Positions 51,924 to 57,949 of a DNA stretch of 64,000 nucleotides are shown here, piece after piece. The notes under the pieces are model-generated. The model was not told the DNA's origin. It worked only from the letters and a program-made list of their open reading frames with translations, and did not search any database. Source of the DNA: an uncultured delta proteobacterium (GTDB lineage Bacteria > Desulfobacterota > Binatia > Binatales > Binataceae); assembly GCA_963808235.1 (NCBI GenBank), contig CAWEEQ010000004.1, positions 1,696,001-1,760,000 on the forward strand. Reading direction: 5' to 3'. Each line of letters starts with the position of its first letter. The first letter of the stretch is position 1. The translations under genes were made by a program, and so were the position numbers.

Positions 51924-51951
51924 TAGTGGCACGGGCGTCCCTGCCCGTGAT
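51924..51951. repeat. REP-like palindrome, family 2, copy 1
   Basis: TAGTGGCACGGGCGTCCCTGCCCGTGAT, identical to 62020-62047. Confidence 0.85.
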
Positions 51952-51964
51952 AAATGCGAACACG

Positions 51965-53206
51965 ATGGCATCGACGCCGAACCAATCTCCAGCGAACGCA
52001 ATAATCGATCCATTAATGGGCCAGCTCGAGGTGCTCGAGCCGGGAATCGCGATGTTTCACGGATTTGCGAATGTCGCGTTCGCGTACGGGCGCGGCGAGA
52101 TGATCGTCGTCGATACCAGTTCGCGGCAGATGGGCCCAATCGCGGTGCGCGCGATTCGCGAGGTCAGCCAGGAACCGTTCGCGTTCCTGGTCTATACGCA
52201 TGGGCATGGCGATCACGCTTTCGGCACCGAGGCGTTTATCACCGACGCGCTCTCGCGCGGCCATGCGCGGCCCAGAATCTGGGCGCACGAGGACGTGACC
52301 GCTCGCTTCAGGCGCTACGCGCTCACCCGCCAATGGCAGGCGCATATCAACCGCCTCCAGTTCGGCACGATGTTGCGGCTCGACGATATGTTCAGCGAGA
52401 AGTCATTCAGTTATCCAGACCTCGTATATCGCAACACGCAATTTCTTGACCTGCTCGGCGAGCCGGTGGAATTGCATCACGCGATGGGCGAGACGGACGA
52501 TGCGACGTGGGTCTGGATGCCGACCCGGAAACTCGCGATGGTCGGCGATCTGATCGTCTCTTCGATGCCGAACACTGGCAATCCGAACAAGGTGCAACGC
52601 TACACGCTCGAGTGGGCGCAAGCGCTCGAAGCGATCGCTAAATGCGCTCCACGCATTGTGCTGCCGGGACACGGGCCGGCATATCGCGGTGAAGAGCTAT
52701 GCGACGAAGTGCTCCGCGAAACGGCGCGCGCGCTCAGAATCATCCACGACGAAGTCGTGCGACGCCTAAACGCCGGCGAATGGCCGGTAGATATAATTGA
52801 AGCCGATATTTCGTTACCCGCCGATCTCGCCGCGAAACCATACCTGCGGCCAATCTACGGATGCGTCCCGTTCGTAGTGCGCGACGTTATCCGACGCTAC
52901 GCAGGATGGTGGTCCGGCGAGCCGTCGCAGATGTTTCCGGCATCGCGCAAGGATCACGGCGGTGACTTGGTCGCGCTATGCGGCCGCGACGCGATGCTCG
53001 CAAAGGCCCGCGCGCTGAAGGACGAAGGCCAGTTGAAGCGCGCGCTAGCGATCGCGGAGATCGCGCTGGACGCTGATTCATCCGACAAGGATGCGGCGGT
53101 TCTAAACGCAGAAATCCTCGAAGCGATGGCGTCAGCCGAGCAATCGTTCATCGCCCGCAACTTCTTCGCAGGCGCAGCCCGCCAACTCAGAGAGCGTACG
53201 AAATAG
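51965..53206 (+). CDS. Alkyl sulfatase-like MBL-fold hydrolase
   Basis: THGHGDH, GETDD, LPGHG, YAGWWSG dimerisation region. Confidence 0.88.
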   Translation: MASTPNQSPANAIIDPLMGQLEVLEPGIAMFHGFANVAFAYGRGEMIVVDTSSRQMGPIAVRAIREVSQEPFAFLVYTHGHGDHAFGTEAFITDALSRGHARPRIWAHEDVTARFRRYALTRQWQAHINRLQFGTMLRLDDMFSEKSFSYPDLVYRNTQFLDLLGEPVELHHAMGETDDATWVWMPTRKLAMVGDLIVSSMPNTGNPNKVQRYTLEWAQALEAIAKCAPRIVLPGHGPAYRGEELCDEVLRETARALRIIHDEVVRRLNAGEWPVDIIEADISLPADLAAKPYLRPIYGCVPFVVRDVIRRYAGWWSGEPSQMFPASRKDHGGDLVALCGRDAMLAKARALKDEGQLKRALAIAEIALDADSSDKDAAVLNAEILEAMASAEQSFIARNFFAGAARQLRERTK

Positions 53207-53235
53207 CTCAAGCTACATTTCTGGCGCGTCTTTAA

Positions 53236-53741
53236 TCATTGTGTCATCCCGAGCGAAGCCGAGGGACCCCGGATCTTTCTCGACGCCGATCACTTCGACC
53301 CCGCTTAAGGCGCGCGGAGCCGAGCAGCTCCGAATCCGTTGCGTCACTCGGAGCTCAAACCAGCCCATGCCGGATTCATCGATTCGATCAGTAATTTCTG
53401 CCGCTTCTTTTCATTGTGTCATCCCGAGCGAAGCCGAGGGACCCCGAATCTTTCTCGACGCCGATCACTTCGACCCCGCTTAGGGCCCGCGGAGCCGAGC
53501 AGCTCCGAATCCGTTGCGTCACTCGGAGCTCAAATCATCCCACTCGGGATTCATCGATTCGATCAGTAATTTCTGCCGCTTCTTTTCATTGTGTCATCCC
53601 GAGCGAAGCCGAGGGACCCCGAATCTTTCTCGACGCCGATCACTTCGACCCCGCTTAAGGCGCGCGGAGCCGAGCAGCTCCGAATCCGTTGCGTCACTCG
53701 GAGCTCAAATCATCCCACTCGGGATTCATCGATTCGATCAG
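53236..53741. repeat. Left arm: three 175-bp tandem units (IR + last 48 bp of nuclease gene + flank-like junction)
   Basis: Units start at 53236, 53411 and 53586 with TCATTGTGTCATCCCGAGCGAAGCCGAGGGACCCC. Confidence 0.95.
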
Positions 53742-53984
53742 CTTGATTTTCTTCGCACGCGTCCAATTCTTCAGTTGCTTTTCGCGCGAGATAGCTGCGG
53801 ATGCATCCGCGAATTCTTCGAACCAGACTAGCCGAGAAATGTTGTAGGTGGCGGTGAACCCAGGCGTCACCTTGATCCGATGCTCATTCATGCGCCGGGC
53901 CAGATCGTTCGTTACTCCGATGTAGATGGTGCGCGATGGGCTCGCGGCGATGTATACGAAGAAGGAGGAGCGTGCTTTGCCCAT
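53694..53984 (-). CDS. Stand-alone GIY-YIG family nuclease
   Basis: FVYI...IYIGVTNDLARRMNEH...AISREKQLKNWTRAKKIKLIESMNPEWDDL; conserved Tyr, Arg, His and Glu present. Confidence 0.95.
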   Translation of the reverse strand: MGKARSSFFVYIAASPSRTIYIGVTNDLARRMNEHRIKVTPGFTATYNISRLVWFEEFADASAAISREKQLKNWTRAKKIKLIESMNPEWDDLSSE

Positions 53985-53996
53985 AGGCAGCTCGGC

Positions 53997-54194
53997 TCAG
54001 CGTGCCCCAAGCGAGGCCGAGGTGGCCGGCGTCGAGAAAGATCCGGGGTCCCTCGGCTGCGCTCGGGATGACACAAAGAAATGACACCGAAATAATGCGA
54101 TGCGCCGGGCTAGATCGTTCGTAACTCCGATGTAGATGGTACGCGATGGGCTCGCGGCGATGTATACGAAGAAGGAGGAGCGTGCTTTACCCAT
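53997..54194 (-). pseudogene. Truncated GIY-YIG copy (31 N-terminal residues plus repeat-derived tail)
   Basis: MGKARSSFFVYIAASPSRTIYIGVTNDLARR then diverges; lacks the conserved His and Glu. Confidence 0.7.
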
Positions 54195-54206
54195 AGGCAG
54201 CTCGGC

Positions 54207-54404
54207 TCAGCGTGCCCCAAGCGAGGCCGAGGTGGCCGGCGTCGAGAAAGATCCGGGGTCCCTCGGCTGCGCTCGGGATGACACAAAGAAATGACACCGA
54301 AATAACGCGATGCGCCGCGCCAAATCGTTCGTTACTCCGATGTAGATGGTGCGCGATGGGCTCGCGGCAATGTATACGAAGAAGGAGGAGCGTGCTTTAC
54401 CCAT
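54207..54404 (-). pseudogene. Second truncated GIY-YIG copy with the same 65-aa translation
   Basis: Same peptide as 53997-54194 despite 7 nucleotide differences. Confidence 0.7.
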
Positions 54405-54484
54405 AGGCAGCTCGGCTCAGCGTGCCCCAAGCGAGGCCGAGGTGGCCGGCGTCGAGAAAGATCCGGGGTCCCTCGGCTTCGCTC

Positions 54485-54577
54485 GGGATGACACAAAAAT
54501 AACTCGGGATGATACAAAGATGAGATGACACAAAGATCAAATGACACAAAGATGAAGTGATACACAAAGATGAAGTG
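54485..54577. repeat. Decaying short tandem copies of the REP terminus (ATGACACAAA)
   Basis: GGGATGACACAAAAAT, GGGATGATACAAAGAT, GATGACACAAAGAT, ATGACACAAAGATG, ATACACAAAGATG. Confidence 0.85.
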
Positions 54578-54617
54578 GCACGGAAATAACGCGCGCGTGA
54601 GAAACAACGGAAAAAAT

Positions 54618-56885
<2,268 letters not shown>

Positions 56886-57024: not shown

Positions 57025-57235
57025 AGCATGCTGCTCCCGATGGTCAAAGATGACCATCCAAGGGGCTAAAAAATCTCGCATTTTCCGGTCCCGACGTGTT
57101 GCATTCTCGTTACAAATATAACTATATTTCCCCGTCAATTGGGTGGGGATCGTAGATTATCCGGCCGCCATTGTGTTCTGGGGGCATTTAGAGGGGTTCG
57201 TACGCGCAGACACGCACTTGGGTGAGGAGGAGTCC

Positions 57236-57949
57236 ATGAGCTGGAAATCAAGGTTTGTAAGGTCGATCGCGGGCCTTTTAGGCATCGCACTGCTCGCGGT
57301 CAATATGACCGGATGCGCCTGGGTCGAGAGGCCGCGCCATTGGGATGGATGCGCCATTGGGGGCGCCCTGCTCGGCGCAGGTATCGGCGCCGCCTCGGGT
57401 ATCGTCATCGTCGACAACACCCGCGGCCATACTGAAACTGCCAAGAGCGCCAAAGTCTATGCTGGCGTAGGCGGCGCTCTTGCCGGTGCGTTGATCGGCG
57501 GCGTCGCGGGCCATTTGATCTGCGATCCTCTGATCCCGCCACCACCGCCTCCTGCACCGCCACCACCTCCTCCGCCGCCGCCACCTCCGCCACCGCCGCC
57601 ACCGGCTCCGGTGAAGTTGATCCTGCGCGGCGTACACTTCGACTTCAACAAGTCGAAGATCAGGCCGGGTGATGCCGCCGTTCTGGATGAGGCCGCGTCC
57701 ACGCTGAAGGCCAATCCGAACGTCACGGTGAACGTTAACGGTTACTGCGACGCGATCGGCGGGGTTGACTACAACCTCAGACTTTCCGATCGGCGTTCCA
57801 ACGCGGTCGTGGATTACCTGGTGAACGCGGGCATTCCCGCCAGCCGGCTGATTCCGCATGGCTACGGCAAGAGCGACTTCGTAGCCACCAATGATACGGC
57901 CGAGGGCCGCGCTCAGAACCGTCGCGTCGAACTGGTGCCCAACCAGTAA
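57236..57949 (+). CDS. OmpA-family lipoprotein with glycine zipper and poly-Pro linker
   Basis: RBS GAGGAGG, lipobox MTGC, FDFNKS, NLRLSDRR, GRAQNRRVE. Confidence 0.92.
   Translation: MSWKSRFVRSIAGLLGIALLAVNMTGCAWVERPRHWDGCAIGGALLGAGIGAASGIVIVDNTRGHTETAKSAKVYAGVGGALAGALIGGVAGHLICDPLIPPPPPPAPPPPPPPPPPPPPPPPAPVKLILRGVHFDFNKSKIRPGDAAVLDEAASTLKANPNVTVNVNGYCDAIGGVDYNLRLSDRRSNAVVDYLVNAGIPASRLIPHGYGKSDFVATNDTAEGRAQNRRVELVPNQ

Follow-up and report, generated by a model that had tools for sequence, protein, structure and literature searches.

Silently diverged fragments of a GIY-YIG nuclease gene in repeat-anchored arrays beside the intact gene of an uncultured Binataceae bacterium

The nuclease gene and its flanking repeat

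We analysed a 64,000-nucleotide (nt) stretch of DNA (the window; GenBank assembly GCA_963808235.1, contig CAWEEQ010000004.1, positions 1,696,001 to 1,760,000 of the forward strand) that holds an intact Ssn-like GIY-YIG nuclease gene (53694..53984, minus strand) together with arrays of truncated copies of the same gene on both of its sides. The host is a Candidatus Binatus-like bacterium represented by a 4.59-Mb metagenome-assembled genome (MAG) in four contigs, and its nearest named relatives are Candidatus Binatus MAGs. The nuclease gene lies between uvrB (54618-56885) and a gene for an alkyl-sulfatase-like protein of the metallo-beta-lactamase fold (51926-53206), and it encodes a single-domain protein of 96 amino acids (aa). 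A profile search placed Pfam PF01541 on residues 8-80 (E 1.5e-14) with no second domain above threshold, and residues Y11, Y21, R30, R31 and E68 were invariant in an alignment of 19 relatives. The NCBIfam search returned nothing above cut-off, giving no family name past GIY-YIG/UPF0213, and the best solved-structure match, the UPF0213 protein 1ZG2, was weak (E 0.0064). A GIY-YIG homing endonuclease of the I-TevI type was ruled out, as the protein has only 96 aa, has no extra DNA-binding domain, and scored 17.5 bits against TIGR01453, for which the cut-off is 56. An Rfam scan of 53100-54700 at E up to 1 detected no intron and no other RNA family.

The gene is enclosed by an inverted repeat of 98 nt (53581-53678 and 53987-54084) whose arms are 86-87% complementary. 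Relatives show this arrangement too: at 29 of 165 related loci the core motif of the repeat flanks the gene on either side within 500 bp. The repeat begins with a T-run and TGTGTCAT and contains a 4-bp stem around a GCGAAGC-type loop; the sequence GCGAAGC forms a stable DNA mini-hairpin. Across the 74 core-motif matches found in the genome (87 blastn hits with a 116-nt arm as the query), the stem covaries among four Watson-Crick-compatible forms, TCCC/GGGA, TTCT/AGAA, TTCC/GGAA and TCCT/AGGA. Nearest-neighbour folding gave -3.3 to -3.4 kcal/mol (z +1.2 to +1.5), which is no stable hairpin by this model. The 24 other genus genomes searched all contain the repeat, and the 16 genomes from other families lack it; this tally, like that of 47 genus genomes used below, takes in the unpublished genomes G018 and G023.

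These features resemble those of the Ssn nucleases, which the main text of Chenal et al. 2025 (PMC11893778) describes as GIY-YIG enzymes of about 94 aa, encoded between inverted NTS/SRM repeats, that bind the repeat solely in single-stranded form and cleave a few nt upstream of it. The catalytic residues of Neisseria meningitidis SsnA are given there as Y6, Y17 and E64, and the Tyr-to-Glu spacing of 47 in the present nuclease equals the SsnA value, a comparison of spacings and not of aligned sequences. As far as that text describes it, the SsnA system has in common with our locus a single-domain GIY-YIG protein of about 95 aa, a gene with a directional repeat, opening with GTCAT, in inverted orientation on either side, a short stem around a GCGAAGC-like loop, and tens to hundreds of repeat copies, mainly intergenic. 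The present repeat and NTS share GTCAT, the stem, the GCGAAGC-like loop and a CCCGG tail, whereas two G/A mismatches in the stem occur only here; unlike the published Ssn repeat, the present one often reaches about 95 nt. Judged from its gene and repeats, the locus is an Ssn-type system, with a GIY-YIG nuclease gene between inverted copies of its own NTS/SRM-variant repeat. In Neisseria, the Ssn system is a reported modulator of recombination.

Two arrays of gene fragments

Tandem Repeats Finder and a repeat finder delimited a 210-bp unit present three times on the 5' side of the gene (53890-54519) and a 175-bp unit present three times on its 3' side (53236-53760). Read in the orientation of the gene, the locus runs from uvrB through a flank and a stutter to two units of repeat, upstream region, codons 1-32 and filler; then follow repeat, upstream region, the whole gene, downstream region and repeat; and then two units of filler, last 15 codons, downstream region and repeat, before the flank and the alkyl-sulfatase-like gene. 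The initial annotation had described the 5' array only, so that the 3' array, the genome-wide repeat and the general duplication pattern reported below are additions to it.

All parts of the 5' array lie on the minus strand. The gene-adjacent arm, upstream region plus repeat (53985..54075, with GTCAT at 54072-54068), is followed by a 23-nt junction filler, x (54076..54098), which resembles the uvrB-side flank, and by fragment A (54099..54194), gene codons 1-32, whose open reading frame (ORF; 53997-54194) runs on through the filler into the repeat. Next come the middle copy of upstream region and repeat (54195..54285), the second copy of filler x (54286..54308), with one difference to the first (54096 versus 54306), and fragment B (54309..54404; ORF 54207-54404), again codons 1-32 and the most ancestral copy as well as the outermost. 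The outermost upstream region and repeat (54405..54495) complete the array. Over these 91 nt the gene unit and the fragment A unit do not differ, and the outermost unit shows one difference (54269/54479), where it has the state of the orthologous locus L013 introduced below. The agreement of the repeat parts and their shared upstream sequence, which the initial annotation had pointed out, therefore amounts to 0-1 differences over 91 nt.

On the 3' side, repeats and fillers lie on the plus strand and gene fragments on the minus strand. The inner repeat plus downstream region (53590..53693, GTCAT at 53593) adjoins a junction filler, sp (53567..53589), that is identical to its middle copy and akin to the flank on the alkyl-sulfatase-like side. 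The middle 3' fragment (53519..53566) consists of the last 15 codons and the stop, has no start codon, and differs from the gene at none of 48 nt. Outward of it lie the middle repeat plus downstream region (53415..53518), with two differences to the inner copy, the middle filler sp (53392..53414), and the outer 3' fragment (53344..53391; LIESMNPAWAGLSSE and stop), which differs from the gene at 5 of 48 nt. An outermost stretch of flank-like filler, repeat and downstream region (53215..53343) ends 9 nt past the stop of the alkyl-sulfatase-like gene. Two terminator-like sites in the fillers did not rise above shuffled sequences.

Some smaller features of the repeats were recorded beside the arrays. 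The stutter (54496..54593, minus strand), which leads into the uvrB-ward flank, consists of four to five units of 16-18 nt, each TGTGTCAT with a short T-rich tail and one extending to TGTATCATCCCGAG, with a period of 16 over 54509-54574; the units look like truncated, aborted repeat starts, and L013 has a similar, shorter stutter. A 16-nt patch (GGCCACCTCGGCC) in the upstream region 53985-54030 shows four transitions relative both to L013 and to the 3' arms of the same locus. It is common to all three 5' units, which were therefore homogenised or are younger than these changes. Site 53622 in the inner 3' repeat is A in the window and G in contigs of runs X1 and X2; since the outer copy and L013 also have G, the population is therefore polymorphic there. 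Beyond uvrB, the window encodes an OmpA-family protein (57143-57949) with a run of about 25 prolines from an 18-21-nt tandem repeat (57536-57603).

Silent differences between the front-end fragments

The ORFs of fragments A and B are 198 bp each and encode identical 65-aa peptides, although they differ at seven positions (54096, 54108, 54111, 54113, 54123, 54141 and 54159, each compared with the position 210 nt further on). All seven differences are synonymous and fall in ORF codons 33, 29, 28 (two positions), 24, 18 and 12. Six of them lie in the gene-derived codons 12-29, and 54096 lies in the junction filler. Compared with the intact gene, each fragment differs at four silent sites in codons 1-31, and codon 32 is ATG in the gene and ATC in both fragments. 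Codons 1-32 allow 288 single changes, 73 of them silent (0.253), and the chance that six of six are silent is 2.7e-4, or 2.1e-4 when weighted by mutation class. Between A and B, synonymous divergence (dS) is 0.29 and non-synonymous divergence (dN) is 0. The silent-only pattern is thereby confirmed to be statistically beyond chance on its face. Recomputation upheld what the initial annotation had stated about the seven differences and the identical peptides, the four silent sites per fragment and the silent quarter of random substitutions, with the qualification that only six differences are gene-derived; its view that simple neutral decay of two dead copies is a poor fit also agrees with these values.

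Because the genome is a MAG in four contigs, the differences might have been an artefact of assembly or polishing, or the assembly might have placed strain variants of a single copy next to each other. Short-read contigs of run X1 matched 54066-54189 (junction and fragment A) and 54276-54399 (junction and fragment B) with no other letters at the variant sites. Run X4, which belongs to another study, gave a contig that matched 54300-54492 exactly. Contig depths were 3.2-4.4 against a flank depth of 3.5, with an intact-type contig (53609-53905) at 3.54, so that all three haplotypes lie near the depth of the flank. Run X1 may be the sample of origin, and its contig check is thus not fully independent. 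The contigs reproduce junction-linked haplotypes. This excludes both polishing errors and strain variants of a single copy as the source of the differences, which the initial annotation had allowed might vanish on polishing; we regard an artefact as extremely improbable.

Repeat-anchored arrays elsewhere

In all seven arrays of the genome with real downstream homology, a window criterion put the end of homology between units 1 and 2 at 9-21 nt upstream of GTCAT, and by eye it lay at most 28 nt upstream. The repeated units begin there and extend downstream into whichever sequence follows. Other repeat-containing arrays of this genome include C4:1538816-1539385 (189 bp, three units), C4:1002008-1002836 (about 283 bp, three units) and shorter pairs. 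An array in another species (L183; 147 bp, two units) starts 24 nt upstream of GTCAT, and loci from other phyla (L033, L034, L041, L078, L101 and others) carry head-to-tail arrays of 2-5 copies of the core motif at 45-66 nt spacing, with unit boundaries 0-3 nt upstream of GTCAT. Since other arrays have the same boundaries, the fragments at the nuclease locus are one case of repeat-anchored duplication.

The array at C4:1002008-1002836 (L186, 809-1637) likewise contains pieces of a gene. Each unit combines a gene-less inverted repeat pair of about 190 nt with the final 17 codons of the phage Mu Gp27-like gene lying upstream, whose 3' end reads GLSPNTADQIRAVLMEI before the stop in the gene and GLSTDVANPIRAVLMEV before the stop, twice, in the array. 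Both gene pieces have the same sequence, at about 35% divergence from the gene itself; the repeat portion is almost unchanged between units, and a search of the rest of the genome gave no donor for the pieces. Repeat parts are near-identical in every array whatever the divergence elsewhere, and cannot be used as a clock.

The symmetry of the nuclease locus would also be expected if three whole elements had inserted one inside another at the same gene site, the fragment pairs being once-working elements that had diverged elsewhere. Two 5' and two 3' fragments stand in mirror positions, divergence on either side is greatest in the outermost copy, the units end where weakly inverted fillers lie, and the silent-only divergence would be accounted for directly. 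The central 146 nt (codons 33-80) are gone from both outer elements, however, so that the same replacement would have had to occur twice. No target-site duplication is visible, and nearly identical copies of the element are absent from the genome, which has just three paralogues at 57-69%. Plain head-to-tail arrays have the same repeat-anchored boundaries in places where nesting cannot apply, and fragment B (one private change in 96 nt) is too clean beside the outer 3' fragment (three in 48 nt) if both are of the same age. A self-nested transposable element was rejected as the main model on the double loss of codons 33-80, the missing target-site duplication and the distance of the paralogues, and this origin appears improbable.

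Further observations concern the arrays and paralogues of this genome. Exactly three units occur in each of four arrays; in that at C4:1538816-1539385 (L185, 817-1386) the units are 99% alike and start 17 nt upstream of the repeat. At the paralogue C4:658758-659024 (57% identical), the repeat and the first 20-30 nt of the gene are duplicated 116 nt upstream (C4:658590-659206), with about 45 nt of unrelated sequence in between. A third paralogue (C4:2935100-2936500) is surrounded by a different short repeat, in 35-nt perfect copies, with arrays downstream of the gene. This suggests, from the sequences around these genes, that each paralogue may have its own repeat family.

Orthologous locus and polarity of the changes

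The locus L013, a 2,047-bp metagenome contig from a related species, comprises the end of uvrB, the alkyl-sulfatase-like gene and between them a single element, whose protein is 90% identical; it has no fragments. Gene by gene, dS between L013 and the window amounts to 0.33 (nuclease gene), 0.43 (uvrB) and 0.74 (alkyl-sulfatase-like gene). As L013 is an orthologous, array-free locus, the arrays arose after the split.

We polarised the changes in codons 1-32 with L013 as outgroup and 14 further relatives (18 sequences compared), and obtained the tree (L013,(B,(A,gene))). Fragment B and L013 share GGT2, TTG28, GCG29 and Ile32. The stem of A and the gene carries two silent changes, and the gene branch carries one silent change and I32M; private changes are three in fragment A (codons 18, 24 and 28 position 3) and one in fragment B (codon 12), all silent. 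Because B and L013 both have Ile32, the ATC at codon 32 of the fragments is probably gene-derived. Four of the eight gene-part changes thus fall on the working gene's own lineage, so that half of the silent-only puzzle disappears without selection on the fragments. Of the three changes private to the outer 3' fragment, one is silent and two replace an amino acid, including D to G at a position that is usually acidic. From these states the outermost copy is the oldest on both sides, which fits successive duplications beside a gene evolving under selection.

Donor alleles and fragments in relatives

Searches for a donor allele of the fragments in the genome (tblastn and blastn) gave none, only the three paralogues at 57-69% protein identity, and the codons of the two paralogues inspected lack the fragment variants. 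Fragment A is marked by CGT18, GTT24 and CTA28; among the 18 compared sequences, CGT18 and CTA28 occur together in L023 only. Partial gene copies were found nearby at one of 166 related loci, that of the window itself; 5'-only gene matches were absent from the 47 genus genomes outside this genome; and the 65-aa peptide had no second copy among its 18 hits in the protein collection. A 36-aa protein ending after codon 32 (P0007) was considered as a second case of the same break-point and set aside, since it looks like a frameshift and not a junction: its tail, ENIA and stop, equals the product of reading a G010-type gene in the +1 frame. The DNA of P0007 itself was absent from the 165 genomes of the order that were searched.

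Broken nuclease relatives were observed within the genus, with two in-frame TGA codons, a frameshift, and the 36-aa product fitting a 1-nt frameshift (L002/L175 (G010:C127), L003 (G007:C47) and P0007). With several such relatives, the nuclease gene is evidently often lost.

The initial annotation had offered two explanations for the silent pattern, and these searches bear on both. In the first, the 65-aa ORFs are translated and their 32 N-terminal residues are under purifying selection; the peptide might, for instance, regulate or inhibit the nuclease, possibly in a dominant-negative way. The six gene-part differences include no replacement, nor do the four on fragment-private branches; each fragment retains its ATG and the 91-nt upstream region of the gene; and the start-less outer 3' fragment does show replacements. 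Occurrence at one of 166 loci and in one of 47 genomes argues against a conserved function. Two thirds of the fold are missing from the peptide, as is the catalytic Glu68; half of the peptide's length is read-through of filler and repeat. A promoter scan found a single sigma-70-like site, on the opposite strand; the gene strand gave none, but this is true of the intact gene as well. Ssn enzymes are monomers according to PMC11893778 (section 12), so that a dominant-negative partner would have little scope. A predicted complex of fragment and nuclease (score 0.14, mark 0.32) is no evidence either way; likewise uninformative is the absence of an RNA run among the 13 runs listed. No positive evidence for a dominant-negative peptide emerged, and we consider translation under selection unlikely. 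The second explanation, that the fragments were copied from functional alleles, fits better of the two, given the changes on the gene lineage, although the genome yielded no donor.

Origin of the fragments

The explanation we favour, tentatively and at somewhat less than an even chance, is that the fragments are relics of repeat-anchored duplications and that most of their differences were filtered in full-length, working genes. A cut or nick by the nuclease upstream of the repeat would be repaired by slipped re-priming or by re-ligation of the displaced strand, both of which are general models of duplication, and the stretch from the cut, that is, the repeat and whatever DNA lies downstream of it, would be duplicated. 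At the nuclease gene this would give two units of filler, repeat and codons 1-32 ahead of the gene and two of last 15 codons, repeat and filler behind it. Successive events beside the working gene would push older copies outward, so that the copies would form a time series of a gene under purifying selection. Most silent differences would then date from full-length genes, whether in the line of the present gene or in alleles that recombination exchanged afterwards, and the repeat parts may have been kept alike by selection for recognition or by short-tract conversion. Conversion from the working gene as the sole process was rejected, as it cannot make fragment-private variants.

Several observations weigh against duplication with filtering in working genes. 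The link of unit boundaries to nuclease cutting is one that we only infer. The published degenerate SRM pattern, as given in the main text of PMC11893778, had no match at the locus and 26 in the genome, one of which is a copy of the present repeat; it occurs within 500 bp of the gene at 15 of 165 related loci. Given this mismatch, we call the repeat an SRM-like variant. The four fragment-private changes are all silent, with a chance of 0.016 given the mutation classes, and fragment B has one change against four on the working lineage where about the reverse, 4:1, is expected (0.028 by a binomial calculated by hand). The fragment A haplotype as a whole was found in 0 of the 18 compared sequences. 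Replacements make up two of three private changes in the outer 3' fragment and none of four in the translatable 5' fragments, a contrast that selection on the peptide would produce but that is not significant (Fisher p approximately 0.14, calculated by hand). Fragments A and B share one junction and were therefore truncated before they split, so that filtering in full-length genes needs later conversion from alleles that were not found. The fragment-private silent changes thus need later rewriting from full-length alleles, selection on the fragments, or luck.

Luck would suffice if the fragments were dead relics, the changes on the gene lineage being silent through ordinary selection and the few fragment-private ones by chance, as mostly G/C to A/T changes at G+C-rich third positions. 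Only four changes remain after polarising; C>T or G>A accounts for three of these, and of the 34 C>T changes that this stretch allows, 19 would be silent. G+C content is 78% at third positions and 47-53% elsewhere, fragments in other repeat arrays of this genome do contain replacements, and the finding was selected for its oddness from a large scan. Even so, the probability stays at 0.016, fragment B is slower than neutral, and the 96-nt gene part contains every fragment-private change except 54096, the only one in the 114 nt of filler and repeat. Such a chance origin is unlikely overall, though it keeps an appreciable share of belief.

Selection might also act on the fragments indirectly, if repair of breaks at the repeats, by annealing or conversion between units, regularly fused fragment sequence into a working gene and damaging changes were purged. 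The 210-bp direct repeats lie directly upstream of the gene, the parts nearest the repeat are homogenised at the nuclease locus, and in the C4:1002008 array the near-identical repeats contrast with the diverged gene fragments. Exchange frequent enough for this would also erase the 16-24% silent-site divergence, and by symmetry the 3' fragments should be protected, yet the outer one has replacements; we find this idea very doubtful. A combined account, in which a nuclease cut primes one-ended local copying of the repeat and downstream DNA, and the captured front ends are translated and selected, or refreshed from alleles of other strains by recombination at repeat-flanked sites, seems distinctly unlikely, if less far-fetched; if true, it would make the arrays the first genomic footprint of the spread of Ssn repeats.

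The first description of Ssn nucleases and of their repeats dates from 2025. If repeat-anchored duplication is the true origin, arrays that start just upstream of the repeat and drag gene ends along would be a testable footprint of repeat multiplication; they would link a single-strand nuclease to local duplication. The silent-only divergence is a small but real anomaly. Should it hold in more strains, gene fragments next to such repeats would be either used or regularly rewritten from working alleles; should it fail, this would be an ordinary locus of the Ssn kind with duplication scars.

Comparison with known systems

Repeat-anchored arrays that capture gene ends are a feature of this Ssn-type locus that goes unmentioned in the main text of PMC11893778, where the word tandem occurs 0 times and gene fragments are absent; our literature searches turned up no such arrays.

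In Neisseria, silent truncated pilS cassettes beside pilE supply amino-acid variety. The nuclease locus resembles them in its tandem truncated gene copies, the conserved repeats between these, and the avoidance of damaging changes. A silent-cassette variation system was nevertheless rejected, because both fragments encode identical peptides and so have nothing to donate, unlike pilS cassettes.

The locus is also similar to insertion sequences and miniature inverted-repeat transposable elements (MITEs) in that a gene lies between long inverted repeats and gene-less repeat pairs exist (the unit of about 190 nt at C4:1002008). Unlike these elements, it has no target-site duplication and no near-identical full copies, and it has an orthologous counterpart in a related species.

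The REPIN/RAYT systems consist of a low-copy gene for a REP-associated tyrosine transposase, a Y1/HUH enzyme, between inverted short hairpin repeats that are thought to be spread by the enzyme. Similarly, the present locus has a low-copy nuclease gene between inverted copies of a hairpin repeat and is inherited vertically at a fixed position, the uvrB-side locus being found in L013 as well. It differs from REPIN/RAYT in that the enzyme is of the GIY-YIG type, the repeat units are directional, and head-to-tail arrays carry neighbouring DNA along with them.

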